Counted from the whole stretch's first letter, positions 34,671 through 53,100 are shown. The stretch: DNA of 63,859 bases, filler included, from Folioceros fuciformis (GCA_049999805.1; 3 parts of 2 records of this genome joined end to end with filler, not necessarily neighbours in it), one strand, 5' to 3'. Made by a program: numbers and translations. The notes: generated by a model from the letters alone, not told the origin.

Positions 34671-37600
34671 ATGGAGGAGGATAGCGATGCAGCAGAGTTG
34701 CTGCAGCGGATTCAGCAGGCGCTGGTGGGCGGGGGCTACTACCGCGCAGGCATTTCCTCGCTCTCTGCCTTTGACAAGCTCACGGGGGGCCTGGCCTGGT
34801 GCATCACTGCCTCCAACGTGGATGTGGACTTCGACGTCTTCTTTGACGACGACGCCACCCTTGGTGAAAAGATGTGTGTGCTATCTCTCGGCGTGTGGGT
34901 TGATTGTCCGAGGTTTAAGGGGGTTCGTTTAGGCAGTGGTTGTGGATGTCCAGCTTATGCGGCCATGAGATTGAGTAATTTGTAGGTCAGGAAGTGTGTC
35001 CCGGGATTATGGGTGCATACTGTAGTGATTGCAAAGTGAAACTGAGAATTCAAGTCTTTGTCGACTCAGAAAAGTGGGAGAAGCCATCGAATCAGCGTTG
35101 CAGAGAATGGGATGTCCTTTTCCTCTGCAAGCTCATCAGATCCAGGGTCTGGATTTTAAGGCAGTCTACCCGGTTGTGCAATGGCTTGTCAAGCGTGTTC
35201 AGGCTACAAGGGAGGAACGAGGTGATCAGGTTGGTGTGCAGATGAGTCAGATTTAAGCTAGCTTGATTGATTGGACCCCACTCTAGAATTTATTGTTTAA
35301 TTTCCTGACATTCCTCACCAGGAAGCTTCACTGACCTTCTTGTTTGTTGGCAGCTTCGGAGATATGCTCTCTTCTGGTTTCGTGAGCATTATGACCTGCC
35401 TGAGGAAGTATGTTCCCATTCTTTCTGCTTGTTCTTGGTGCAGAGCTTTCAAGGCTGATCGGCTTCTGGCTTGTTGCCTTACGTCCTGCTGGATGTTTCC
35501 CCATCATAATTTTCTTGTTCCCATGTCAACCAGGCGAGGTTTAAAACTGCACCTTCTCAGAGGATACGTCGCCTCTACCGTCGTGCCAAGTATGTTGTGT
35601 CTCTCCCTTTCTGCCGATTCTATTGTGACATTGTAGTCTTTAGTGTGTTCGTTGTTTTCAAAGTTGCAGCTTTTTGTTTCTGATTGCTGCTGATGGTTTA
35701 CTGTCCCAGAAGTATACCACCTCCAGCTAATCGCATGGACCGTGTCCGCTCCACTTTGCTGGAGTATGGTCATCAGATACCTAGGTAGTTCTGCTGTTTT
35801 GTTGCTCAGGTGGCAGTGGATGGTCTCTGTCCATTCTCTCACGGATATCTTGTAATGTGTGGTTTGGAATGTGCCTGTGATTCAGAATTGACATGGCTGA
35901 CGTAGAGCATCCTGTGCTAGAAGAGTGGACAGAAGCAGAAGACCTGCAGTTGTCAACACATGGAGCCCTTGGCAGTGTGAGCCAACTGTACTGCGGCTGC
36001 ACCTTTGACTGATGTGTTCCCTTTATGTCCGCTTGAACTTTTGTTCTACTTGCAGGCCGTTCATCTTGCTGATTTCCGACAGCTACTGGGAACCCTATCA
36101 AAGGCTAATGATGGAATGTTGTCTGGTCGAACAGTGTAAGCTACTCCGATTACTGTATGTATGTGCGTTTTGCAGGGTTTCTTGAGTTTTCATACATCGG
36201 AAGAACGTTGTTTGTTTTGCACTGACATCCTTTCTTCCGTCATTCTGGCAGGCGCCGTATTGTGGAACTAGGGTCAGAGGACATTCAGGCTGCATCATCA
36301 AAGTACTCTCAACCAACTGCAGGGAGCAATGTACACCAGCACCAGGCATGTGCTCAGTGAATTTTTGCGTTTCTCGTGTGGTGACTAGGTGACGAACTCA
36401 AGAAATGGAATTCAGTAGTATGAAGGAGGGGTGTACAATTCTGATCATTTTTTTGTTTTGATGGACAGCAAATCACAGCACTCAATAGACAGATAGATTT
36501 GCAGAGAGAACGCATTGAGCGTCTCCAGGCTGAGCAGGAGTCATGGGGTCAGAAATTTGAGGGTGCGGCACAATCATTGAGAAAGCAGGTGTGTTGGGGA
36601 CCAGGAACGTTGAGGTGAATTTCTGTACTGCTATTGGATGTTGCGGTAGCATGAGTTTACGGGCATTTCCTCCTGTGCAAGTTCTGCAGTATTGAGCAGC
36701 CATGTGCCTGCTGCTGTACTGCTTAGGGCGGCAGGATGAGCGCAATACTCAGTTGCAGGAAACGATGGAAAAATTACAAGCAGAAGTGGATGCTGCACAA
36801 GCTGGTGGAATTGTGGGGAAGCTGAAGTCTCAGTTGCAGCAGTTAGCGGTCTGCATCCTCCGACCTGTACTGATGACCTGCATTCCATTATGTTACGTGA
36901 CTTTTCTGGGGAACTGAATGTGATGAGCAGCCCACTGATCTATCAGCTTGGCCTACAGATGCTGGAAAAACAAGAGAACCAGTTTCGTGTTGACTGTCGG
37001 AAGCATCGAGCTAACCTCTTATCTACCATACGACAGTTGCGGGAGCAGGCCGCAAACTCTGCTGAAGACACTGACCGTTCTGAAGAAATTGATGCCACAC
37101 TCAAGGCGGATTTGGAAAAGCTGAGCTTATTGCGAGTCGTACGTAGAATGACCCAAGCATTTTATGTACTTGTGTGGGAAACGTTTAGTCTCAGTGACCA
37201 AGTGGAAGGTGTGCAGGAGTTGGCGAGCAAGAGTCGGGCAGTGGCCCTACTTCAAAGACGAGTGGATGATCTTCCCACACAGTCTGAGCTTATTCAGTAT
37301 GCCTAGCTTACAACCGTTATATGCCTATCATATGGCCTTATAGAAGTCTCCCATGTGACGGATGCTTTCTTGACCCGGTCTTCATCTCCGACTATCTGCA
37401 GATATGAGAGGCGTTTTGTAGAGCTGTTCGTGCACATACAGGTAAGGTGGCACGTGGCTGTTTTTTCATGGCAACATTGGAGATCAACCTCGTGACTGCT
37501 GTTGCTAACGGTACGAAGTGGGGTGGAATGGATCAGGGAAAATTGCGGGAGACAAGAAAATATTTTGGAACGTACAACGCCCTGGCTGAAGCTCACGAAA

Positions 37601-38166
37601 TGACCGTGAAAGAGATTTCGCTTTTGAATTCCATACATTCCCAGGTATTAAACGCTGTAATCAGCTTCCACAAGCATGCTGGGACCGTCTGTTCTGCATC
37701 TGACCTCGGATTTCTAGTGCAGTTTGATGCTGCGATGTTGACAGCAGGAGGCCGTGCCAAGTTCCTTGAGTCTATGGAGGGAATCGCAAAGGGCGTTCAT
37801 CAGGTTCATGCCTTTCTCTTCTGTCGAACTGCTGCAGTTGGGCCCATTTGAAGGACATGTCCTCCTTCCTAACTTGTGATGCATGTGCAGAAACTGGACA
37901 AGATAGTCAAACGGTTTCAGGCAGAGCAAGCTACGTATGCAAGCCTGAAAGAGAAGCATGCCGCACTTATCGCTGAACAGCGGCAATATGTAGCACTGAT
38001 CAAAGCCTTTCAGGTAAATTGTTGCATGAAAGCGTGTGCTTGGACACTTTCTCTGCACGGAGATAAGGCATATTTATGTTTCTGTGGAACACAGGAAGAA
38101 TGTGCTCGGAACGAGAAGCTACACGCGCTTATGGAGCAACAAGGCCACCCTCCGAGTGAGATCTAG
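34671..38166 (+). CDS. CCDC93: Coiled-coil domain-containing protein 93 (CCC/Commander subunit), many exons
   Basis: LVGGGYYRAGISSLSAFDKLTGGLAWCI, MGCPFPLQAHQIQGLDFKAVYPVVQWLVKRV, DDLPTQSELIQ|YERRFVEL, KLRETRKYFGTYNAL..KEISLLNSI and FQ|EECARNE. Confidence 0.92.
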
Positions 38167-39198
38167 TGCTGCGCGCTAAAGTACAGACGTGCGACTGTGG
38201 CTGGGCACGTAACAAGTAGCTTACGTTCAAAGATCTGACAAGGGACTCGCGCCAATAGTGTAGTCCGGCTTTTTGTGGAGCCCATCGTCAACTTCCAACC
38301 TCATGAGGAGGACGGGACACGTCGGGCACTGGGCTTAAAACACGTACAGATTTGGAGTGGCCGAAACTGTTGTTGGGATTGGGGACTCCAGGACTGTTCA
38401 TGTCATTTGTCACTGTGACCTACTGCTGTGTGCGAGTCCCCAGGACTGGGACAGTCCGTTGCCTTCCCGAGGTGTGACTCACCGCCCCCAACGCTTCACA
38501 CTGTCTGTGCCCTGGCTATCCCTGTGTGAAGGTTAAACACACAGATCTCATGGGTTTAGCTTTATACCGAATGCTGATCCAAGCGCAAGGCTGCCCGCCT
38601 CAGTCCAGAACTGCCAGCTGGAATGTGAAATGCTAGCTGTTTTCAGGATGTTTATACTGTACTGGGAAAGCTCTGGTTCTAAGGAACAGCGACCATACTG
38701 CCGTCCCTGAGCACTCCCGATCACGACAGCTCCTGCCACGTTATCTCAGTGTACTGTTTCGATGTTTAAATCAAGCCGCCTCGAAAATGCGCGAGACGCA
38801 GTGGAACTCCAGGAACCCCGGCCCACCATCCCTTTGCATTGAATCGAGGAGTTGTAGACACTCCACGGTAGCGGTGCAGCCTCAGGCAGACGCAGCCGTG
38901 TTGGGGGAACGTTGAGCAGTCGACGTCTCGCAGGTACGGCCTCGTGCCCTCCTTGCTACCCGAGGATGTGGCACTTGCGATCTTCCCCGCTGCCTCGCAA
39001 GTTGGCCTTCAGCTCTCCAACCTCTGCAGCTCCTGATCCCTTTCCTGGAAACTACGCGTTGTGATTGCTGCCTGGACGTCAAGGGTGCACACTGTACAGA
39101 ACGAAGAGACTGCATGAGAACTATACAAGTGGAATCTGGTGACCAGCAATGGTCAAGTCGTACAGCGATTGCTGTGCGCGTGGACTGCTGAGCTTGGG

Positions 39199-41618
39199 AT
39201 GTCCAAAATTCGAACATCCTGCTTCGCTCTAACCAGGCTGGAGGGCTCCTTCCTCACATGGGCTGGGTTAGTAGTTCTGGCAACGTGGGAAGCATACTTC
39301 TAGTGTCACCCTTCCTACTCCAGCTCTGCCGGCAACCCGGTACCAAGTAGTACAGGCCCAAGGTGGAATGCTAGTCTTTAGCTGAAGGAGACGGAGGCAT
39401 GGGCTGCCAGCATCAAGCTTGTGCCCAACGACACCGTCTACTTCGAGTACAGTCCCTCCGAGTGCAACGTGCTTCAGGTGAAGCGTTCGCAACATCAGAC
39501 GTGCAACAGCAGGGCTCCTGTCGCTGCGTGTGCTTCAGGGGCTAATGTCGTTCAGCTGGCAAATCTTGGGCCGCACCGATTCATCTGTGGGCTCAAAAGC
39601 TACTGTGCTGAAGGAGTGAAGGTAGCCGTAGAGGTGCGCGTTTCCAGCCAGAACGAGCCTCAACCCCCAGCATCCTCCAAGAGACGCAAGCCCCTCCCCA
39701 AAAAAGGCACTGATTGCAGGTGTTATCATCGCTGGAGTTTTGGGTCTGCTGGTCGCAACAGGGATCATGTTCTTTTGCTTGGGGTGCAAATGTGTGCGAA
39801 ATGATATTCGGCCCAAACCTCTCGCGACCGACACACAAAGCAGTGGAACATGTAAGCAAGCAAGCTCTAGCTTTAAGCTGGCCCGCATGACTGCAGTCCT
39901 GCTTGCCGAGCGTGATGTGCTTGGCCCTCAGCTATCTTGTGTGGAATGCAGATGGCCATAGCAGTGGCTCGAGTGGGGCATCGAAAGGCGACTCCGTCGC
40001 TTCCAGCCATCCCAAACCTGTCCTGGATACTTTGTATGTGAAGCCCTACACTCTTTCCGAGGTGAAGGAGATCACTGTAAATTTTGAGACGAAGATCGGT
40101 CGAGGTGGTTTCGGCCCCGTGTTCTACGGGAAGCTGAAAGATGGGAAAGAAGTTGCCGTTAAAGTCTACTCGAAGGATTCCCAACAAGGGGAGGGGGAGT
40201 TCATCAACGAGGTGCCCACGGTCTTCCCTTCTGTGATCACCATGCTCTGCAGGTACTGGGACAACCTGGCTTACGTGGAACGTGTTGGTCTATACGTGCT
40301 GCAGGTGAAACTTTTGTCACTGGTTCACCATAAGAACATCGTTCCTCTGGTTGGTTATTGCCAAGAGAACGAGGAGCAGATTTTGATGTACGAGTTCATG
40401 CACGGTGGTGATCTGCAAAAACGGCTGCAGGGTACAAATGTTTTCAGATTCTTACAGGGCTTAAAACTAGTATCCTGAATACAAAGTTACGAACTTGCTT
40501 TGACTCTGAATGTTTGAAGCTGACCAATGAAGCAAACCTTTGCTTGTTGATGTTCAGGCCCGTCTGCAATAAGCAATCCTTTAGCTTGGCGAGAGAGACT
40601 GGGCATAGCTCTAGATGCCGCTAGAGGTATGTTGCACACTAGGCGTTCAGGACAGAAGCAAAACTTGTCCTTATCCTACCCACTCCCAGTGACGTGCTAC
40701 TGTTGTTGCAGGTATGGAATACCTGCACACTGGCCTTGAACAGCCTATTATCCACCGAGACATAAAAAGTAGCAACATCCTGCTCTCTCGCAATCAAGCA
40801 GCCAAGGTGGCAGACTTCGGTCTCTCGAGATTGGCTTCGTTGGATCGTTTCTCGACTATCACAACCCATGTCAAAGGAACTGCTGGATATCTGGACCCTG
40901 AGTACGCCTACCTTGTTGGCTCTGTGTCTTTTCACCTAGAGTTCAGCAACACTGTGCGTCGCCCAGGGTGGCGATCTTTGCTCTCATGACTTGGCATGGG
41001 ACTTACCCTCCATATGATTTGTGGTGGCAGTTACTTTCTCTCTACGCATCTGACAGAACGAAGCGACGTTTATAGCTTCGGGGTGCTTCTGCTGGAGCTC
41101 ATATCTGGCCGTCCTCCGATATTCCAAGTGACTCGAGGAACCAACATCGGCATTGTCCAGTGGGTAAGACCGGTTTGCTCAGTTCCTGCACTGTCCAGTG
41201 GTTAACAGCGGTTTGCTCGGTTTTCTGTGATCCTTACCAAGATCAGTTTCACGGCCCCTCTTTTGCTCACAAATGAACTGCAACAGGTGAAGCAGGGTTT
41301 GCAAAATGGGAACATCGAAGAAATTGTGGACCCACTGTTGCAAGGGGACTTCGACGTCGAGTCTGTGTGGAAGCTCACGGAAACAGCTCTGCAGTGTGTG
41401 GATATCGAGCGCAACAGCAGACCCAGCATGAGTGCCGTTGTGANNNNNNNNNNNNNNNNNNNNNNNNNNNNNNNNNNNNNNNNNNNNNNNNNNNNNNNNN
41501 NNNNNNNNNNNNNNNNNNNNNNNNNNNNNNNNNNNNNNNNNNNTCCTTGCCCATGGGATCACCGGATGAAACCATGTCTAGTGAGTCTCAGGCAATGGCT
41601 GAACCCAGGGCGAGATGA
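39199..41618 (+). pseudogene. Phytocyanin (plastocyanin-like) ectodomain-TM-Ser/Thr kinase receptor gene. The ectodomain exon is disrupted; the LRR-I-type kinase exons are open.
   Basis: ATRYQV(fs)TGPRWNASL*..WAASIKLVPNDTVYFEY..CNVLQV..CN..HRFICGLKSYCAEGVKVAVEV, then a frameshift in the A run at ~39700, then TM ALIAGVIIAGVLGLLVATGIMFFCL. A phase-1 intron (39852-39950) joins this in frame to [53 protein letters not shown] and a C-terminal EPRAR*. The start codon is uncertain. Confidence 0.8.
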
Positions 41619-42754
41619 AACCGGAGATGGAGAGCGAATGGTACAAGCCGCTACTTGCCTTTCCAGCCAAAATTATTTCCTTCCTTGTAGCCACGAAATG
41701 GGCCAGGGACCCGACCCACCAGCTTCAACCAGCTATGCCATGATTTGGTGGACAGTGCTGTCAGATGCTGCCCGTTGTTTCCGTTGTGTCCTGCATTCCT
41801 CGCGGTGAGTGTGCAATAGTCATTTGCTTTCATAAAGCAGATTGAAAGGACTGCCATTGCTGGACTCGGCAATCCGTTTTCTTCCCTCCTTGATCAGAAG
41901 ACCTACAACCACACCACTTATGAGGGTTTCAGTAGCACCATCATTGGCAAATTCAGTGATGCAATGAAACCTGTAGTCATGAACGATAACGGTTGTAGAG
42001 AAAGTGGGTTTTGGATGGTAATGAGAAGGTAGGGGTCAGAGCATGTAGGACAACGAGGAACCAGACAGAGCGACATTAATGTTGACACGGTCAACTGTTC
42101 AATTTTAGAAGGCGCATTTTCTGACATTCCCTGCCGGCAGCCATGGCTTACTGGTTGCACTAATCTCGGCGCGGATTCGTCTGCTTTCTCAAAAGCAGAC
42201 CGAGATGAGAAAGATGTTAGTAAAATCACAGCGCTCCATATCCATGGATTTTACATGCATACTGTATGTGTAGCAGCTGTGTGTTGACTCGGATCCTGGA
42301 GCTCGAATGTGCAAGGGCTCCCTTGAGGCGATCCGGGGCCCACGGCCAGAGCCGCCGCACGTCCCTACCTTCATTCCAGAATTGTTAAATGAAATCGCCT
42401 TCTCTGCTGCGCGGATTCCTCACTGCACAGCCAGTGCCCACCAGCCCGATTTGTCATGAGATCCATCCCCGAGGGTATTATTGCCCTCACGGATGCCCCC
42501 TTCACTTTCGTTCAGGGCTCCCTCCCGATATTAAAGCCTGCTCCCCTTCCAGACTTGTCGGCCTCGGATTCCTGAACGAATCTGGCCCACTCAGATTACA
42601 GGAAAGCCCCATCCTCCTTCTGGGCCTTTTCTCGTGCTTCCGCTCTCTATGTCTGCATCATATTCAGGACCGCAACATGATCTGGACGTCTTGCCGCTAT
42701 CCCACCGCGTTGCCGACAGTTAGGCAGCTAGGAGCAAGACTCCAGTGTGCTCAC

Positions 42755-42910
42755 GAGATCACAGCCTGTGGGCGGCCCCCGGATGGCTCGCCTCCTACAG
42801 CCCACCAATGGCCCGTGCTCCTGGTGAGCAAAGTGTGCTCATGAGATCACAGCCTGTGGGCGCCCCCCGGATGGCTCCCCTTTCATAGCCCACCAATGGC
42901 CGGTGCCCAG
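42755..42910 (+). repeat. ~88-bp tandem duplication spanning the 5' UTR and start codon of the malectin-LRR gene
   Basis: GAGATCACAGCCTGTGGGCG..GGATGGCTC..AGCCCACCAATGGCC at 42755 and 42843. Confidence 0.8.
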
Positions 42911-45524
42911 CAACTCAGGGTAGCCCTTGTCTGCCTATCAATCATCGTGGCCGTCCTAGTCTGTGCAGCCATTGCAGGTACGAACGAAATCCGAATGCGA
43001 CTGTTGTGTGTGAAGGCCATTGCATGAATGTTCTCCCTTTTTAACACCTTCCAGTGCACGGAATGCCACGATATTTTTCCTCCAGGATTCACAAGCCTGG
43101 ACTGCGGTGGCGCCCAGAGCTTCAACAGCACGACCGGGATCCAGTGGGAACCCGACAGCAGCTTCATTGCCACGGGCATCCCTGTCGATCTCTCCTCCGC
43201 CCTGCCTGCTGCCAGGCTGCAGGGCCTGCCTGTGGAGCTCCGCACTCTGCGAAGCTTCCCTCCTTCTTCCGCGCCCCGGAAGAATTGCTTCATCCTGCCT
43301 ACGGATTCCGGCAAGGTGTACCTCGTGAGATCCGGTTTCTTCCACGGGCCGACGCCGGCACCGGCCTTCGCCCTCTCCATCGGCGCCACTGCATGGACCA
43401 CTGTCTCCGCTTCCGGGAGCTTCCAGACAAGCGCGGCCTACCACGAGGCAATGTACTATGCAGCCACCGAGAGCGTGGCCGTCTGCCTCCTGCGCCTCAA
43501 AGACCAGGACACCCCCTTTATCAATTCGCTGGAGCTCCGAAGCATGCTGCCCGGAGCCTACGAGCTGGCAGCAGTGGCTGGCGTGAATCTCAACCTCATC
43601 CTGCGGACCAATTTCGGGGGACTCTTCACAAGGTATGCCTGCCATGGCCGATGCAAGGGCGGAGCTTGCTCGAGGCTGGACGCTCGTCAATCCTTGTCTT
43701 CATCTTCGTCTGACTCCTGCTGCAGGTATCCAGGTGACCCACGGGACCGATTCTGGGCGGACTACCTTGAGGATTTCTCCTACATGGGGAACTACACGGT
43801 GATCAAGGCACGTCGCAAGCGCAACGTGAGCGACCCGCAAGGCACGGACCAACCGCCGGATGCCGTGATGAGGACGGCGGTCTCCAGCCCGGTGGTAACC
43901 GTCAGCATTGCGCCTTCGCTCTTTCCCGACCGGCAGATTCAGGCATACGCTTGGCTGTATTTCGCCGAGATCGACAAACTGCGGAAGGGAGAGAGGCGGA
44001 TCATCGACTGGCTGTGCGACGGAGATAAGCAAACCATCGACCTGGCGTCTTCCTTTCCCCCCTTCACCACAATCCAATTCGGGTACCTGAATCGGACCTT
44101 GGAAGGGAGCTTCGACTGCGTTCTGTCTCGGGACGCGGCTTCCGGGCGAGATCCGCTGCTGAATGCTATGGAGGTTTACGCCGTGCAGAGGAAGTCGGCG
44201 GGGACATTGGCAACAAACGGTACCTTTTTTTCCGTTTGTTTGTTTTTCTGCTTCGGTGATGTTGGGGAGAAGGCGATGCTCATCTTGAGCCTGAAAATTT
44301 TTGCAGGTCAAGCCCTGCAAGCCCTGAAGGACGGTTTCAGGTTGAGAGGATGGTCGGGAGACCCTTGCCTTCCTGTACCCTGGGACCAGCTGAAGTGCAG
44401 TGAGGATGTTCCTAGCCGGGTTACCAGCTTGTGAGTCCTCGCCTGCCAGAGCTTGCCTGCAGCTACCCCCGGTTGTGTGTGCTGTTGGAGCTGATTTCAA
44501 CCATGTGAGGTGTGGCAGATGAAGAGGCTGCACACAGCAACACAGTTTTTCATCTCCTACCACGTCTCATATGATCTTTTTGAGTGTCGCTGTTCCTTCC
44601 TCCAGAAACCTAACCTCCATGAACCTGACGGGGTTCATCCCGGATAGCATCTCCAAGTTGACGTCCTTGACGATTCTGTGAGTGGATCCGTATCTCTACT
44701 CGTCCCTCATTTTGCATGCGTGCGGTGTCCGGAGCCCTGGTTCCCCAGAGCTCTCGCGGAACCGACATTTTCAAGTGCTCCACATTTGTGCTGGCAGGGA
44801 CCTGAGTGGCAACCGTTTCACAGGGCCGATCCCGTCATCCTTCGCGGCACTGAAATCTTTGCAAATTTTGTGCGTGCACGTCCTTTTCAAGTTTCGTCCT
44901 GCTCTATTCCGCGTCCCAGCTGCCTGCCCTGCTGTCATAGTCAGAGCGTGGTGCTCATGTCTGTGTTCCCGAGTGATGCAGAGACTTAGGCAACAACGAC
45001 CTGAGTGGAGCTTTCCCCGGCTGGCTCACGCTGAAAGCATTCCCCGGTCTGCAACTCCTGTAAGCTCCGTACTCCGTGAACCCTTGCCAGTCTGCCCATG
45101 CCATAAAGTCTCCGTTTCCTAAACCCGTTTTGTCTGCCACGATAGCAGATCCGTGAAGAACAACAGATTGAACGGCACGTTCCCTGCCAATTTCATCACC
45201 ACGAAGGGCTTCTCCTTCGAGTAGGTCCCTCCATTTGCCTCGTCTCTTTCATCACTTCCGTCACCGATTGCTTTTGCTGATCCCTCACTGGTTTTGCTCA
45301 TGCTTCTCAGATACTCAGGCAACGTAGACCTTTGCAGCTCCCAAGGATGCCCTAGGGCAACATCTCCTGCTCCTGCTCCTGCCCCCGTTCCCATACCGCC
45401 TCCCACTGCTCTACCTACGAGTTATCCAGCAAGTGGGCAGACTTCCAAGGCCTTCGCCCCAAACCAGATTCAGTGTGCCCTTCTTGTCCCGCTCCTCACC
45501 TCGGTTCTCGCCTACATGCCATAA
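42896..45524 (+). CDS. Malectin-like + LRR receptor-like protein with no kinase, ending in a Pro/Ala-rich linker and predicted GPI-anchor signal
   Basis: Signal peptide MAGAQQLRVALVCLSIIVAVLVCAAIA, then GFTSLDCG, TLRSFP, YLVRSGFFHG, PFINSLELR, RYPGDPRDRFW, YFAEI, PLLNAMEVY and WSGDPCLP. Four one-LRR exons (NLTSMNLTGFIP, DLSGNRFTGPIP, DLGNNDLSGAFP, SVKNNRLNGTFP). Ends YSGNVDLC..SPAPAPAPVPIPPP..ASGQTS..CALLVPLLTSVLAYMP*. Confidence 0.88.
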
Positions 45525-46366
45525 GGGACAAAATTCCAACCCTCACAATATTCGAGGCACCTTCCATTTCCCTGGTACCCTTTCAAACCTCACATGCGTA
45601 GTCGACGTCGGTTAGCCACGGGGTTCCATCTGTCCCCATCGGAGTGGATCGAGCATACTGTGATCAGATATGACCTGCGAGGGGACATGTTGCAGGGATT
45701 TGGAGGCAGCAAATCTCGTCGCTGTTCGCATCAAGTCGGAAGCAGATCATCGTCGTATCGGCACAACCTACCCTGACACGCAACGAGGTGGGCGGTGACA
45801 AGGGCCCAGTGTGAGACACGGATAGTCGAGTGGTATATCCTTTCTCATGTAATTCAATGGTAATTTGCTTGATGGGTGTCGCATTGAATTTCACGATTCA
45901 ATTATTAATTGTAAACCTTCCTTTTAAATAAATGGATGTGCAGGACCTTGGTATGGAGTGTGCGTAACAGTATATGATATACAAAGAGTATTCTAATAGT
46001 TCGTACCAAGTACATTATGCATTAGTATGGGTCATCAAGAGTGTATTTTCTACTAGTCCGTACTAACGGATTCCATCGTGAAGAGCGCTCCAGGAGAACA
46101 CACATCGGAGATCCAGGGCCGGGGCTGAAGCCTCAGAATACAGCCTAAACCTGACATAGAAAATTCATTTAAAAGGAAGAACTTGTGCAATACGGAAATA
46201 AATGCCAGAGTGGATTTGGTTAAGGGCCGCGTGATTCCGAAACTTCCTGCCACACAGGCTGAATCGGTCACGGCCGCCTTGGTAGGCGAATTCGCAGGCC
46301 CGGGACGTTCAATTCATTGGGCCACGAACTCAAAGGCCTGTGTGCTGGGCCTCGGACCGCGTAGTG

Positions 46367-49353
46367 ATGGCCTCGTTGCTGCGGCCTGAGGACCGACTGG
46401 AATTCGGTAACCTCGCCATGGACCACAGCGACGCCTCTCGGGAGGACCTGCACCCGCTGCAAGTTCACGATGCACCAACTGTGAGTCCTGAATTCGAAGC
46501 TTGCAGTCCTGGAACTCCAGATTGAGCGAAACTGAGCTCGCTTTTGTATGGAATTGCGTGCAAGAGAGGGTTTCAACAGGATCCTCCATGCAAACTGCTT
46601 CCCTTGTTGCCAAGTTTCATGGTTTGTTTGGATCTGAAATGCAGTGGAAGCAGTCCGTGTCGGTGGAAGAGCCGGATGTTGAGCCAAGGATTACAGTTGA
46701 AGATGCGCTGGAGGCTATTGGTAAAATTTTGTGGTTTGTTATTGCTGGAAGGTGACGCGGAGGCAGATAGTGTGGATCAGTTAGTGTGTATTGAAACTCT
46801 GTGTCGTGGTTCAGGATATGGCCGGTTTCAATTAGGAATGATAACTTATGCTGGCCTTGCGTGGCTGGCTGATGCAGCAGAGATGATTTTGCTCTCCTTT
46901 ATTGGCCCTGCGGTATGACTTGTCCTTGCTACAGCTTGACTAAAGGCTTTGGAGCTTGAGTGTTGCCTTCTGACGTTGGCATCATGTATTCTTGCAGGCG
47001 AAATGTGAATGGAAACTGACATCAACCCAAGAAGGGGCCATTTCCAGTGTTGTCTTCGTTGGCATATTCTGGTACGCCGCGTCATGTGCAAGTGGGTGAG
47101 GGGAAATTGAACATGTGTCTGAAATGGATTTTGTTGGTTGGGATCTGCAGTGGCTCGTACCTTTGGGGCCTGATAGCTGATCTAAAGGGCCGGAAGATGG
47201 GTTTCTTAGCAACCGTTGTCTTCACGCTGCTGTTTGGGTTGCTCAGGTACGACATGCTGATGTTTACCCCATGGTCTCTCGCCAAGCTGCCGTCCAATAC
47301 CCGTCGTAGCCTGTGTTCCTCTTTAGTATTGACGTGGATGACCTTGTCATACATTGTGTAGTGCGTGGTCCCCTACATTTCTGTGGTTGCTGGTAGCTCG
47401 AGGTTTGGTTGGCTTTGGGCTCGGAGGCTCCGCTGTGAGTTAACATGGCCCCCTTCTTCACCATAGGCTTGTGAGCACACCGTTTCTCGTCCTACTTACC
47501 GCAGAACTCCTTGGATTCAGGTTGTTTTCAATTTGTGTTTGGAATTTCTTCCACCATCAGAAAGGGGATTTTGGCTTGTCGCTCTCGAATTCTTCTGGAC
47601 TGTAAGTCCAAATTTCTGAGCACTGCACATCGCTTATGATTCTTGTTTGTTCCTAGTCTCAGGGTCTGTGCCTTGCCATTTTGTTCTGCACAGGCTGGAT
47701 CCGTAGCTGAAGCACTGCTTGCGTGGCTAATTCTGCCAACGTTCAATTGGAGGTGAAAGACGTGTCTTCTTCACATCTCCCAGAAGCCCTTTAAGAGAGC
47801 TAGTATTTGACCTTAGTATCTCTGCAGACTACTGGTGGCCTTGTCGTCTCTGCCATTTTTGTTGTTGGTTATTTTTTACCACGCTCTGCCCGAATCGCCT
47901 CGATATTTAATGGTAAGGCCTCCTCTTCTTCCACACTTACGACCAACCTCCCTCCTCTGGTTTTATGAGCTTGTGGATGGTTTAACCACTGATGGCCTAG
48001 TTTTTAGCGAAATCTTGCAGGTCCTGTGGCCATCTGATTCATAGCTGCTTTGCTTTGGCTTGGGCATTCAGATGAAAGGTCGCCATGTCTCCTTTCTATC
48101 TATTTGCGATATGTAGAGCAGATACAACATTCCGTGTCTTTAGGGATGAGCGCAAGTAATCTGAATCTCAATACAAGAGAGAGTAAAGGAGGCTTCGTGT
48201 GGAGTAGTGCAGTTTAACTGACAGTTTTGCTACAACAGGTGAAAGGTGATACAGAAGGGGCTCTTGCAGTCCTCAGACGCGTGGCACAAGTGAACGGACG
48301 AGAGATGCCCACTGGCTCTCTCATCCTTGCCAGGACTGATCCGTCAACAATAAGTACGTCAGCAGTTACATGTGCCTTCAGCATCCCAACGTGTCTCAGT
48401 GCTAAGTGGGAGTGGTAAATTTTGCAGACAGGGATAGTCTTCCCCAAGTTGCAGAGAATCGCCAGCTCATCACGAAGGAGAGTCCTAAATCAGCACGGCT
48501 AGGGGCATGGGATACTTACAAGGCTATGTTCAGTCCACAGCTGAGAAAGACTACTATACTCCTGTGGCTGAATTATTTTGGCAATGCCTTTGCGTATTAT
48601 GGACTGGTCCTCTTGACAACTCAACTATCAAGTGGTGACCAGCAATGTCAGGGAGACGCAAAAGTCAGCCAATTCTGTTCGGCCGATGGGAGGACGAACA
48701 TTGACAGTTGGACTTACAAGGAAGTGCTCCTGTCATCATTTGCTGAACTTCCAGGTCTAGTTATAGCCTGTCTGGCTATTGAAAGGCTTGGGAGGAAAAG
48801 AACCCTGGTTGCCTTGCTGATTGGTTGTGCGGCATTCTTGAGTCCTCTGCTCACCACAACGTCAACCATCAGCACAATGGTGTTACTTTTCGGTGCCAGA
48901 GCGTGCATAATGGGAGCTTTCTCAGTTCTGTGGGTGTTTGCACCAGAGCTGTATCCAACAAACATCAGGGCGTCAGCTCTTGGCTTTGCCAACGCAGGAT
49001 CAAGAATTGGGGGCTTTCTTTGCCCCTTCGCGGCTGTGGGCCTTGTTGAGAACTGTCACAAGGTGCGTGCCGTTCGCGATCTTGGTTTCGTTTGCTTCAT
49101 TCTATCCTGGTGACGCATATCCTAACAGTCCCGTTTACTTTGCCGTGCGACAGGCCTTGGCTGTTGGTCTGTTCTCAGGAGTGTCACTCCTCTCCGGTGT
49201 TGTTTCACTCTTCTTCCCGGTCGAAACAAAGGTGAAAACAGCTCCTGCTATGGCTGCTGACGCTTAGATTTCAAAGGATCTCAGATGAGTCAAACCTGAA
49301 AACGCGTTGTTGGTCATATGCAGGGATTGGGGCTATCGGACGACTTCAGATGA
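46367..49353 (+). CDS. MFS transporter, organic cation/carnitine transporter 7 / SV2-related, many exons
   Basis: TVEDALEAIG|YGRFQ..GLAWLADAAEMILLSFIGP, WGLIADLKGRK, LPESPRYL, NAFAYYGLVLLTT, AELPG, ERLGRK, APELYPTNIRA..RIGGFLCP and FPVETKG. The start codon (46367 or 46418) is uncertain. Confidence 0.88.
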
Positions 49354-50199: not shown

Positions 50200-53100
50200 A
50201 TGGGGTTTGACAACATTTTTCAGCCAATTGATTATCTGTGCAACCATACGAAGCGCAGGAGTGATTCCAATGATGAGTGCGCGTGCAGCCAGCCTGTAGA
50301 CGTTGTTGCGCCAGATTCCGTCTCCATACGAGCCTACGATGATGGGAATGGGAGAAGGGGCGTGAACTGGACGCTTCTTGCTGGTGGAGCATTCGCAACA
50401 GCAGTTTCTGTTGCTTTTTGTGGAAAGCGCCGGCGGAGTTGTGTCTCTGGAGGAGATAGCCAGCCCGTAAAATCGGCAAAGGCCATGGCTGTTCCTGATA
50501 CCGGTACCTGGTCCTCCTTCTGCCTGTGCCTGCCTCACTGTTGCGTCCCTTACGTTTAGTGACGTTGCCGCTGTATTTTTGCTCCAGTTACGGATGGTGA
50601 CAACGGCGGAGATGGAGTGTTGCAAGACACCTATGTTCGCCGAAGGCAGTTTCCTGCTTCCTCACCCTCAGGTTGATAATCAACGAAATATCGCAAAGTG
50701 TCCTTTGTTTGCTGTGGGATTTGTCAAGGCAGCATTCCAATGTTTACCGTGGCTGTGCATTTTGTGGTCGCTTCTATTTCTCTGATTTTCCCTTTCCGCC
50801 AGCGGCTGTTGAAGGATACGCAAGAATGTATCAGCGTCATGGAGCTGGTGGGTGCGTCAGGACGGGGTACTCAGTGACTCCGCCGGGAAAGGACCCCGTA
50901 TGTTTTACGTCGGCCGCAAAGCAGCTTGTGGCTTTGCCTTGCTCTTCAACTCCGCCACTCCTTCTTTCCGAAGGTCAATCAAATTATGCTACTCCCATTA
51001 CCACTCAACAGGGGGAGAAGCCAAATTCAAATCCGTCATCGCGAGCACACGTCTCAGCACGACATGACATGCTGCACAGGCTAAGACAACAGGTTAAGAG
51101 CCGGGATGAGTTGATATTAGACGTCCATACTCAGCTCAGGGACCAGGAACGGACCATCAGATTGCATGAAGCAAATCGGGGGGAACTGGAAGAACGGTTG
51201 CAACTAGCGAACAGGTCGCTTTATGAAGCACAGGCTGAAAATCAGAAGCTGCGCAGAGCCCTTGCAGACAGAGATGCACAACGAACTGCGAGCTCGGTTG
51301 AAGCGAACAACCAATGCAGGGACTATCGAGCAGAGTCTCAACGGCTTCCGTCTGGCAGGTTTGACATATCACCCCAGACATCTCAACAAGCTTGCCAAGA
51401 ACAATTGCTTCAGCAGCAGCACGACTTGCAGTTATTGTCTGCGGAAGTCAAGAGACTTGCAGATGAGCTAAGGGATGCTGAACAGGTCAGGAAAGAGCGC
51501 GAAATCTCCGTATCAAAAGAACATGAGTTCCTCATAGATAGGTTGAAGCACGTAGAAGCTCAATTGGAGGGAGCAAGGAGGTCGAACATAGAGAAGGACC
51601 AGTTGCTGGAAACGTACAGAGCACAGTTTGTCAGCGCCTCTGGGGCTGCGCAGCTTTCTCGAAAGGTGGGCCGTGACGTGTGGGTAGACCCAGTTTTGTA
51701 TCCGAGCTGTCCTAAGCACTGGAATTTGATCAGCTACTTTTTTTTGCTGGTCAGGTTGAGAGCCGACCTGGTGACATTGGAAGAGGGCGTGAAGATGCGT
51801 GTCCACTTGACAAAGTGAGTCCATTGCAAGTGCAAAGTTCTGGTGCGCAGACTGGCACTGGTGGATATGATAACAGTCCTATAGCAGAGAGTTTCAGCCA
51901 TCATGGGTAAGCTGAGCTTGCTTGTATGTGTAGATGTGCACGTTGCCAGTTGTTTCCTCTCGTGATTCAGGATTTAGGCGATCTGACATTGTGTCGGTGG
52001 CCCAGGGATGTTGTGAGATCTTACAATGCGTTGTTTGAAATTACACCTGAACCTTCAAGTCGTGGTGCAAGCACGTCCAACACCCTTTCCGTGGAACGGG
52101 ACACTGATCTAGCAGCAGATGGAGAAATTATTGAGAGCCTACTTGTCGCGTTGCAGGAAGAGGTTGACCAGCTGTCGACTGCCCTTGGCGATAGCTCAAG
52201 GGTGGTAATTGGACTGTCCAGCCCGCTTTGTCTGTTTTTGACCACCTGTCGCTGTGAACGGATTCTCTTTCGTTTTGGTTGACTGTGTTGGTATCGTACT
52301 TTTCACAGCAGGTTATGGACAACAAAGCAGAGTCAATTCAGTTAGTCGACAAGCTACAGGTATCAGATGTCATTCCCGCATCTGGCAGTTCAAGTAGCCT
52401 CCATGGCCGTGGCCAAATAGAGTTCTACCTAGAGTTTAGCTGTTCAGGTCCTTTGTAGAATGATAAGCATGTCCTCTTCGACTCACATTTTCAGAGAACT
52501 CTGGACGAATTCGGAGTCGCTGCACCTGATAGTGTTGAGGATCGGGAGGAGCTCACTCACTTCTTAACTTTTTCTAAAGGCATTACGTCTGCTGTACAGG
52601 TTAGATCATTGCTTGGCAGGTTTACAAGCAACGAGAGGCTTTTTGCTGCCTACGCTAATGCATCTGTTTGTGGACAAGATCAGGTTCAGGAGCTCAGTCA
52701 CAAGCTAGAGCAAGTGGCAAGGCAACAGATAGTTGAAGAAGAGATACTGGAACTCGGGAAACATCAATCCAGAATCGCGGAACTGAAGGAGAGGGTTGAA
52801 CGACTAAGTATGAGGCTTAGCTGTTCCCAGGAAGAAACTCCTGAAGAGTGTCAATCAACCGAGAAACAGTCAGCCAGATTGGCTTCGTTGGCCGTAGACC
52901 TTGCCAAAAAATTGACTATGCAGGTTTCACAGTCAAACCCTTCGCTTTTTTGTACTTGGTCTCATGATATCTTTCTCCTGTCCGTTCAAGCAACGTAATC
53001 TGCTGGATTTTCTTTGCAATGTAAATGAAGCTGTCTTGGACTTCATGCAAAACACTTGTACCTACTATTACAGGAAGAGCAGGCAAGGCGAACATGTTGG

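Follow-up and report, generated by a model that had tools for sequence, protein, structure and literature searches.

Two adjacent genes of the hornwort Folioceros fuciformis (GCA_049999805.1) are best explained, judging from their sequences, as descendants of SymRK/SHRK-type malectin-LRR receptor kinases. Our preferred reading, which we consider probable, is that they are two separate transcribed genes of this derivation, gene 2 intact and gene 1 with a decayed ectodomain frame; the members of the pair may have been remodelled independently. Gene 1 joins a phytocyanin-type remnant to a SymRK-type kinase, and gene 2 encodes a malectin-LRR protein that ends in a short hydrophobic tail.

The locus and its transcripts

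The window, that is, the whole stretch of 63,859 nucleotides (filler included) that was analysed, was subjected to a Pfam domain search, in which all the named domains were found on a single strand and in the order given by a first-pass annotation of this DNA. The spacing of about 1.3 kb which that annotation had estimated between the two same-strand genes was measured as 1277 nt, from the gene 1 stop codon (TGA, 41616-41618) to the gene 2 ATG at 42896. The pair is flanked by an unrelated CCDC93-like gene and by a gene for an MFS transporter. No further phytocyanin, malectin, LRR or kinase pieces were found in the window, where all 13 of its own pieces matched themselves only, and every match of 169 fetched proteins to the window fell inside 39000-45000; within the window, neither an intact parental gene nor leftover exons were found near the pair. 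The upstream copy of a tandem duplication at the start of gene 2 (Table 1) supplies an extra upstream ATG.

Table 1. Features of the gene pair, in coordinates of the window
Feature	Position	Strand	Basis or remark
Gene 1, decayed N-terminal part	39199..39381	+	signal-peptide-like and first-strand remnants across three frames (stop-to-stop ORFs, frameshift-aware P0044 alignment)
Gene 1, Cu_bind_like (phytocyanin) domain, early-nodulin-like type	39382..39636	+	PF02298 match 39382-39630
Gene 1, linker with one-base frame change between Cu domain and TM helix	39637..39706	+	unspliced in RNA contig
Gene 1, TM helix	39707..39784	+	translation; aligned to P0044 TM; contains ATG 39767
Gene 1, kinase ORF, 409 codons (~45 hidden in N gap)	39767..41618	+	RNA joints, Pfam kinase matches
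Gene 1, kinase exons	39767-39851, 39952-40211, 40305-40431, 40558-40626, 40712-40901, 41031-41163, 41287-41443, gap, 41544-41618 (TGA)	+	GT..AG joints
N gap in last coding part of gene 1	41444..41543	.	transcript has ~134 nt there, frame kept
88-bp tandem duplication, 89% identity	42744..42906	+	spans gene 2 start codon (repeat search, sequence)
Gene 2, 584 aa	42896..45524	+	open spliced frame, PF12819, RNA joints and record arithmetic
Gene 2, signal peptide exon	42896-42977	+	
Gene 2, malectin-like exons	43086-43632, 43726-44219	+	
Gene 2, GDPC cap exon	44307-44430	+	
Gene 2, four LRRs, one per exon	44606-44677, 44798-44869, 44982-45059, 45149-45220	+	
Gene 2, last exon	45311-45524	+	Cys cap, Pro-rich linker, 16-aa hydrophobic end, TAA

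Transcript contigs were taken from run X1, whose record only guesses that it is RNA, a nature which the GT..AG joints show. Both genes are transcribed: six introns of gene 1 are supported by spliced GT..AG contigs, as are at least six of the eight introns of gene 2 (five joints listed, one through record arithmetic), introns 44431-44605 and 44870-44981 having no match among the 15 joints listed out of 19. A contig of 4739 nt connects gene 1 with gene 2 across the 1.3-kb spacer; contigs can merge neighbouring genes, and a contig over two genes is not the same as one transcript. Contigs also drop rare isoforms, so that a minor spliced form of gene 1 could be missed. The joints past the gene 2 stop lead into the downstream MFS transporter gene, and a connection of gene 2 through them to a kinase was rejected; splicing of gene 2 to a TM/kinase elsewhere, a possibility raised in the first-pass annotation, is thus not what these joints represent. 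Runs X2 and X3 contain next to none of the locus words, run X3 yielding two matches only, of 32-36 nt, in conserved kinase exons.

Gene 1: a phytocyanin domain out of frame with its kinase

Gene 1 had been described as a phytocyanin domain, a TM helix and an LRR-I-type kinase ending in PRAR before the stop. The domains, their order and the ...PRAR end followed by TGA stand, but one continuous ORF does not, in view of two TAG codons, a frame change and RNA that is unspliced across them. Cu_bind_like (PF02298) matches at 39382-39630 with an E-value of 2.1e-13 and a score of 50.5 bits (cut-off 20.8), covering profile positions 10-83 of 84. In the frame opened by ATG 39199, TAG codons at 39301-39303 and 39379-39381 (stop-to-stop ORFs, three-frame view) intervene between the signal peptide and the phytocyanin domain, which are therefore not in frame. 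Farther along, the Cu-domain ORF (39382-39804) and the TM ORF (39632-39961) overlap in frames one base apart, and a single frame from a start codon via Cu_bind_like into the TM helix is absent from the ORFs and the spliced mRNA of gene 1.

Over 38782-39851 the RNA contig follows the genome base for base, with 0 other letters, 0 gaps and no splice; a single contig covers this stretch, and the bin depth there is the depth of that contig. The intron at about 39268-39381 that had been proposed earlier is rejected, since the sole covering contig retains the stretch and reads straight through with 0 differences. An 85-nt intron (39622-39706) that would join the Cu and TM frames was rejected because it too is retained in the RNA contig. 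Ribosomal frameshifting at the A-run near 39700 was also rejected: a +1 shift would be needed and, on our own reading, there is no standard slippery heptamer.

The complete plan is present in one ORF of P0044, a 598-aa protein from the Nothoceros aenigmaticus transcriptome, with a signal peptide, Cu_bind_like (E 2.4e-17), a TM helix and a kinase (E 2.4e-51). Its alignment with gene 1 extends over the phytocyanin domain and on to the end of the kinase, with 45 of 107 aligned residues identical in the Cu domain and 61.8% identity over 343 residues in the kinase. Because the plan is intact in another hornwort, phytocyanin-TM-kinase is an older hornwort gene family and not a product of the window locus alone. 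In alignment A1, gene 1 keeps one of the four copper ligands (His, Cys, His, Met/Gln), the Cys, and P0044 keeps only the first His; the incomplete ligand sets place both in the early-nodulin-like type. A word-based search with P0044 residues 40-262 returned P0044 alone among 1886 candidates, and one for longer proteins with the Cu domain gave 12 candidates, none at E <= 0.01, each being weak evidence of rarity. The 90% cluster of P0044 has one member, and an atlas look-up with its residues 40-330 reached at best 0.84, in generic kinase clusters and under the lead level of 0.9.

The Pfam kinase matches of gene 1 fall in the exons between 39951 and 41443, and the GxGxxG, VAVK, HRD and DFG motifs are readable in its translation. 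The N gap beginning at 41444 is a small sequence gap and not the misjoin that had been considered, as an RNA contig crosses 41444-41543 in frame; the length of its filling follows from a record of 684 bases, of which the known exons make up 550. The best ORF of gene 1 is without a full TM helix. ATG 39767, inside the former TM helix, opens the longest kinase ORF and is preceded in the spliced mRNA by seven short ATG ORFs. We regard it as an even question whether gene 1 now yields at most an N-terminally truncated, cytoplasmic-type kinase from this ATG, and the long leader with its many upstream ATGs would make translation from there inefficient. It is rather unlikely that gene 1 is a recent, fully dead transcribed pseudogene. 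The good conservation of the Cu domain (E 2e-13) suggests that the decay is recent, and the kinase may be intact merely for lack of time. By our own rough arithmetic, the chance that three lesions would be confined to some 510 nt when the coding sequence is about 1600 nt long is near 0.03; this clustering is a hint of continuing constraint on the kinase part.

Gene 2: a kinase-less malectin-LRR protein

Gene 2 had been read as a malectin-like domain with four LRRs, a Pro-rich linker and a GPI-like tail, and an open frame of 584 codons with these parts, closed by a stop at 45522-45524, bears this out. Malectin_like (PF12819) matches at 43088-44434 with an E-value of 3.2e-51; searched against solved structures, the malectin region gave 0 matches at E <= 0.01. 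Hydropathy reveals only two strong hydrophobic stretches, at residues 4-35 and 566-584, and the terminal one, of 16 residues, is shorter than a usual TM helix. On our own reading, an Ala-Ser-Gly triplet lies 12 residues ahead of this tail. No kinase exons were found downstream of gene 2 in the window, and a database search found no hornwort relative of it. Its product is most likely GPI-anchored, or otherwise kept at the outer membrane face, as far as such a tail can predict, and would most likely depend on a kinase partner, serving as a receptor-like protein without a kinase (a co-receptor, a decoy or a sensor of the wall).

Family relationships

The MLD-LRR-RLKs of the SymRK/SHRK type are the LRR-I kinases of older naming. 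Among solved structures, SymRK is the best relative of the P0044 kinase (308 bits versus 254 for FERONIA) and of the gene 1 kinase pieces (88.8 versus 60 and 70.6 versus 63.4). The gene 1 kinase shares 51% identity over 250 residues with a soybean SHRK-like protein; across SHRK-like proteins, as a ranking by score only, three matches show 45-51% over 218-281 residues and four are partial, of 52-85 residues. Its ...PRAR C-terminus resembles that of the angiosperm matches, which end in ...P(T/A)AR. For the gene 2 ectodomain, the best database relatives include a protein named after At1g67720, and identity to five SHRK-like receptor kinases is 31-34% over about 510-540 residues. The kinase and malectin parts thus do not appear to be drawn from unrelated subfamilies, an outcome against which the first-pass annotation had cautioned: by scores and identity, the best relatives of both lie in the SymRK/SHRK family.

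With that family gene 2 shares the signal peptide, the malectin-like domain, GDPC and a few LRRs, one per exon, and gene 1 shares the kinase type and the PRAR-like C-terminus. In the family, however, ectodomain, TM helix and kinase stand together, whereas here they are split over two genes, the one for the kinase lying upstream; gene 1 bears a phytocyanin-type remnant in place of the malectin-LRR part, and in gene 2 a hydrophobic tail takes the position of TM and kinase.

Relation to described receptors

Both architectures have already been catalogued separately (PMC9603095, bioRxiv 10.1101/2023.12.21.572927, PMC8287233). Plastocyanin-like receptor kinases form 12 entries in Table 1 of PMC9603095, and Cu_bind_like is listed as a possible receptor-kinase ectodomain in bioRxiv 10.1101/2023.12.21.572927; neither source gives these kinases a function or, in the text available, a species, kinase clade or genomic context. 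P0044 has the same plan as the catalogued proteins, and gene 1 is homologous to P0044 over its whole length but differs in that the plan is split into frames with stops. ENODL phytocyanins and plastocyanin-like arabinogalactan proteins number on average 11.2 per hornwort genome (PMC12209756). Gene 1 shares with ENODL phytocyanins the Cu_bind_like domain of cupredoxin type, both disulfide cysteines and the lack of a full copper site (A1); it differs from them in having a TM helix and kinase after the domain, with no Pro/Ala/Ser/Thr (arabinogalactan-type) linker and GPI signal there, and a signal peptide and first strand that are out of frame.

Kinase-less malectin-like receptor-like proteins are known as the MLD-RLP clade, e.g. 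AtRLP4 (PMC8287233, PMC9603095). Like these, gene 2 has a signal peptide, a malectin-like domain, LRRs (as in AtRLP4) and no kinase; the AtRLP4 type, as described there, has a TM helix and a short cytoplasmic tail, whereas gene 2 has the Pro-rich linker and the 16-residue, GPI-signal-like hydrophobic tail. The best relatives of gene 2 are SHRK-like kinases, in a comparison containing no RLP4-clade sequence. Literature searches found no description of a phytocyanin-kinase paired with a malectin-LRR-tail gene; phytocyanin and hornwort terms occur 0 times in metaRLK 2.0, and "gpi" is absent from the text of the preprint on the SymRK family.

Evolutionary interpretation

Under the independent remodelling that we favour, gene 1 would represent, at this locus, a hornwort family whose SymRK-type kinase carries an early-nodulin-like phytocyanin ectodomain without a copper site. 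Its ectodomain frame would have decayed here, through two stops and one or more frame changes. The kinase part, with its six introns, is still spliced correctly and retains all its catalytic motifs. The adjacency may then, we infer, be a remnant of tandem SymRK-family genes, each remodelled on its own and not by one reciprocal swap; on this point, independent remodelling is no better supported than a single swap.

Such a single reciprocal rearrangement of a phytocyanin gene and a SymRK-type kinase gene, making both chimeras (for example, by excision and reinsertion of a segment from mid-kinase gene to mid-phytocyanin gene) and followed by decay of the gene 1 ectodomain, is improbable. The genes are complementary (Cu domain and TM-kinase versus malectin-LRR, Pro-rich linker and hydrophobic tail), they lie close together on the same strand, both receptor-kinase halves belong to the SymRK/SHRK family, and the surroundings hold no parent gene or leftover exons, all of which a swap would accommodate. 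Against it, by our own reasoning, a simple inversion, deletion or tandem duplication cannot give tandem same-strand reciprocal chimeras; the linker and hydrophobic end of gene 2 are of low complexity and not phytocyanin-specific, and could equally be the juxtamembrane region of a receptor kinase with a truncated TM helix; and the phytocyanin-kinase fusion already exists in Nothoceros.

In Arabidopsis, early-nodulin-like phytocyanins and LLG proteins have been reported to partner FERONIA, a malectin-like kinase. By analogy with FERONIA and such GPI-anchored partners, the pair might form a working split receptor, in which the GPI-anchored malectin-LRR protein would sense a ligand or the wall and signal via the neighbouring kinase. 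Both genes are transcribed and covered by one contig, gene 2 itself lacks a signalling domain and the gene 1 kinase keeps its catalytic motifs; yet the contig does not prove one transcript, adjacency by itself is weak evidence of partnership, and gene 1, lacking a translatable ectodomain or full TM helix, could not meet the gene 2 protein outside the cell, so that we give this little credence. A working phytocyanin-kinase partner at the Folioceros fuciformis locus is unlikely because the phytocyanin part is out of frame with the TM-kinase. Equally doubtful is a hornwort-specific receptor system in which a copper-less phytocyanin would have taken the place of the malectin-LRR part of a SymRK-type kinase and the displaced ectodomain, GPI-anchored, would have come to lie next door through one reciprocal rearrangement, the two acting as a co-receptor pair where intact, mirroring FERONIA-GPI-protein modules, with the window copy recently disabled.

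Least probable of all is a reading in which gene 1 would be intact, its stops and frame change being assembly or consensus errors or being eliminated in a minor isoform. In its favour, the draft assembly contains 13 N gaps, there are homopolymer runs close to one frame change, conservation of the Cu domain is good and rare isoforms stay hidden in contigs. Against it, the RNA contig equals the genome at every base of 38782-39851 and is unsplit there although all six kinase introns are spliced, and a minimum of three distinct lesions would have to be corrected one by one.

Significance

Receptors of the SymRK family play a central part in symbiosis and in accommodating microbes, and hornworts harbour both cyanobacteria and fungi. 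Gene 1 should be annotated as frame-disrupted (a pseudogene or a truncated kinase) and not as an intact phytocyanin receptor kinase. Gene 2, whose product is probably lipid-anchored, may represent a co-receptor version of the SymRK ectodomain. In hornworts, a SymRK-type kinase that carries a phytocyanin domain, backed by the intact Nothoceros transcript, would be a natural ectodomain replacement in this family, and gene 1 with P0044 offers a tangible example in which to ask what is sensed by copper-less phytocyanin domains.

Published counterparts and the origin of the phytocyanin-kinase architecture

Receptor proteins resembling each of the two genes have been catalogued. Earlier publications list 12 'Plastocyanin-like-RLK' among ~40,000 receptor kinases, together with malectin receptor-like proteins such as AtRLP4 (PMC9603095), name Cu_bind_like as a possible ectodomain new to receptor kinases (bioRxiv 10.1101/2023.12.21.572927), and count 11.2 plastocyanin-like arabinogalactan proteins in the average hornwort genome (PMC12209756). 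They also define a kinase-less malectin-like clade and place SymRK in the malectin-LRR kinases (PMC8287233), and divide the SymRK family into clades I-X, with lineage-specific clades in non-flowering plants (bioRxiv 10.64898/2026.05.08.723708); the latter preprint does not mention GPI. No description of the paired arrangement of gene 1 (phytocyanin, TM and kinase parts) and gene 2 (malectin-like with four LRRs) was found in the literature searched.

The Cu domain was compared by HMMER with 1.84 billion representatives, giving 606 matches at E <= 0.001, of which 150 were listed. Pfam was run on 20 of the listed matches, including all 12 with at least 400 residues: in 18, Cu_bind_like is the sole domain, present in 1-4 copies; another is an unrelated SprB-repeat protein from a bacterium; and one, P0044 (598 aa), combines Cu_bind_like with a full kinase. 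Among the matches listed, the proteins closest to the Cu domain (P0020, P0022, P0028, P0048 and others) have 2-4 tandem Cu_bind_like domains joined by Pro-rich linkers, in proteins of up to 891 aa. P0044 is a complete open reading frame from the transcriptome of Nothoceros aenigmaticus, so that among full-length relatives the one nearest to gene 1 is a hornwort protein, and the window is treated as hornwort-like on that basis. The two are identical at 45 of 107 positions of the phytocyanin domain and at 61.8% over 343 residues of the kinase, and the TM and juxtamembrane region between can be aligned. In A1, an alignment of Cu_bind_like domains including both, gene 1 retains one of the four copper-ligand positions and P0044 a different one; lacking a full copper site, both can be assigned to the early-nodulin-like type. 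The phytocyanin-kinase fusion belongs to an older gene family of hornworts rather than having arisen at the window locus.

Family relationships of the kinase and malectin-LRR regions

Among solved structures, the P0044 kinase scores best against SymRK (308 bits, vs 254 for FERONIA), and the kinase pieces of gene 1 give the same ranking (88.8 vs 60 and 70.6 vs 63.4). A search with the malectin region of gene 2 returned 19 proteins of 246-784 aa, all malectin or malectin-LRR, many of them partial receptor kinases and one named after At1g67720. The spliced product of gene 2 is 31-34% identical over ~510-540 residues to five of the 19, and three of the same set share 45-51% identity with the gene 1 kinase; several of these proteins end in ...P(T/A)AR, and gene 1 likewise in ...PRAR. 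The scores against solved structures and the identities to common receptor proteins point to the SymRK/SHRK family for both the gene 1 kinase and the gene 2 ectodomain, a placement by score and identity. The first-pass annotation had allowed that the two parts might belong to unrelated subfamilies, and these comparisons argue otherwise.

Domains, transcripts and neighbouring genes

The domains of the two genes and their complementarity, as first described, are borne out by Pfam and the translations. Kinase matches were obtained for three of the four later exon stretches of gene 1 tested; the 52-aa piece at 41287-41443 had no Pfam match, and the TM piece, a 26-aa LRR piece and the tail matched no Pfam family above the cut-offs. 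The window, from a draft eukaryotic assembly, contains 13 N gaps and no further copies of parts of either gene (13/13 of their pieces match only themselves), and in a tblastn of 169 fetched proteins against it every match lay within 39000-45000.

X1, a public sequencing run whose contigs were aligned to the window, contains 0.80 of the sampled window words. Its record is silent on RNA, and its nature was read from the contig joints: the contigs are at least 99% identical to the window (15/15), and 14 of the 15 joints listed, of 19, skip GT..AG introns, the fifteenth being the N gap 41444-41543; X1 is therefore RNA-derived. The introns of both genes measure ~85-175 nt.

Coordinates of domains, introns and flanking genes in the window
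Feature	Position	Strand	Evidence
CCDC93-like gene, upstream flank	36740-38163	+	Pfam
Cu_bind_like	39382-39630	+	Pfam, E 2.1e-13, profile positions 10-83 of 84
Gene 1 intron	39852-39951	+	X1 contig, GT..AG
Gene 1 intron	40212-40304	+	X1 contig, GT..AG
Gene 1 intron	40432-40557	+	X1 contig, GT..AG
Gene 1 intron	40627-40711	+	X1 contig, GT..AG
Gene 1 intron	40902-41030	+	X1 contig, GT..AG
Gene 1 intron	41164-41286	+	X1 contig, GT..AG
Gene 2 intron	42978-43085	+	Listed X1 joint
Malectin_like	43088-44434	+	Pfam, E 3.2e-51
Gene 2 intron	43633-43725	+	Listed X1 joint
Gene 2 intron	44220-44306	+	Record arithmetic: leftover 125 record bases = 1 + 124 of next exon
Gene 2 intron	44431-44605	+	GT..AG ends, frame, homology only (among joints listed)
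Gene 2 intron	44678-44797	+	Listed X1 joint
Gene 2 intron	44870-44981	+	GT..AG ends, frame, homology only (among joints listed)
Gene 2 intron	45060-45148	+	Listed X1 joint
Gene 2 intron	45221-45310	+	Listed X1 joint
MFS/sugar-transporter-like gene, downstream flank	46380-49110	+	MFS_1 match 48406-49110, E 9.6e-10

The flanking genes are unrelated to the pair. The upstream CCDC93 coiled-coil matches fall in three exon-sized open reading frames (E 2.7e-12, 1.9e-10 and 9.9e-05), the leader of the downstream MFS gene contains an intron (45833-45943) and starts at most ~300 nt from the gene 2 stop codon, and a 405-codon stop-free stretch at 50601-51815 (+) has no Pfam match at E <= 0.01. A single 4739-nt RNA contig (38782-44430) starts upstream of gene 1, crosses the 1277-nt spacer and ends in exon 4 of gene 2, and another links the final exons of gene 2 with the MFS leader. 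Such contigs reflect either overlapping untranslated regions of tandem genes or read-through, between which contigs cannot discriminate.

Gene 1: a broken ectodomain frame and an intact visible kinase

The 4739-nt contig matches the genome colinearly over 38782-39851 with no differences, and since the bin depth there equals the contig's own, no other contig is present. An intron ending at 39381, proposed in the first-pass annotation, is thus not spliced in the assembled transcript, and neither is an 85-nt candidate intron at 39622-39706. Without these introns, no start codon was found whose frame stays open as far as the TM helix. The frame of the originally proposed ATG at 39199 is interrupted by TAG codons at 39301-39303 and 39379-39381, the second aligned to a P0044 residue position, and the Cu-domain frame (39382-39804) is offset by one base from the TM frame (39632-39961); with two stops and a frame offset, the original open-frame model does not hold in this genome. 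Comparison with P0044 suggests that the signal peptide and first strand originally lay in two further frames, which would make three frame changes and one stop. By either lesion count, gene 1 carries at least three disabling lesions within ~0.5 kb. The longest kinase-containing open reading frame of the spliced mRNA has 409 codons and begins within the former TM helix, at ATG 39767; seven ATG open reading frames of 25-48 codons precede it, assuming that the leader reaches as far as the contig.

No lesion interrupts the visible ~1.1 kb of the kinase part, in which the glycine loop and the VAVK, HRD and DFG motifs are retained. By rough arithmetic, chance alone would confine three lesions to the first third of the coding sequence with a probability of ~0.03, which hints at a kinase still under constraint; alternatively, gene 1 could be a young pseudogene. 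A 38-bp tandem duplication (86% identity; 41150-41184 and 41188-41222) covers the donor of the last intron tabulated for this gene, and its second copy has lost the donor GT.

A misjoin at 41444 had been raised as a possible artefact, but the N gap is not one: an X1 contig spans it in frame. This contig has 684 record bases between its anchored pieces vs 550 bases of known exon, so that ~134 nt of transcript lie inside the gap; together with a single base remaining upstream of it, these make 45 codons and keep the frame into the last 24 codons, up to the stop TGA 41616-41618. Beyond the conserved kinase end the tail has 69 residues, vs 67 in P0044.

Gene 2: a malectin-LRR protein without a kinase

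With introns removed, 584 codons of gene 2 form an uninterrupted frame that encodes a hydrophobic signal peptide, a malectin-like domain across two exons, a cap exon with the GDPC motif, four LRRs (one per 72-78-nt exon, in identical phase), a Cys cap, a ~40-residue Pro-rich linker and a hydrophobic end of 16 residues, with TAA as the next codon. Strongly hydrophobic stretches occur only at the two termini, and the tail falls short of the usual TM helix length, with no cytoplasmic part; judged from its sequence, it is most likely a GPI signal. Splicing to a TM or kinase region elsewhere had also been envisaged, and the X1 joints past the stop (45833-45943, 46481-46644, 46721-46814) lead instead to the coding exons of the MFS gene. 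An 88-bp tandem duplication (89% identity; 42744-42818 and 42832-42906) covers the start codon, and its upstream copy has an ATG of its own that opens a short upstream reading frame in the leader.

Origin of the pair

The first-pass annotation proposed a reciprocal exchange of ectodomains and tails between the two genes, or a split sensor and signalling module formed by their products. Of the objections foreseen to it, unrelated subfamilies, a misjoin at 41444 and splicing of gene 2 to a TM or kinase were checked and did not hold. For a single reciprocal exchange to leave the two chimeras as same-strand tandem neighbours, the rearrangement would have to be an unusual one, and the 'phytocyanin-like' tail of gene 2 is of low complexity and could also have come from a truncated receptor kinase. 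We consider this combined proposal very improbable. The gene 1/gene 2 pair is a variant on already known kinds of receptor protein.
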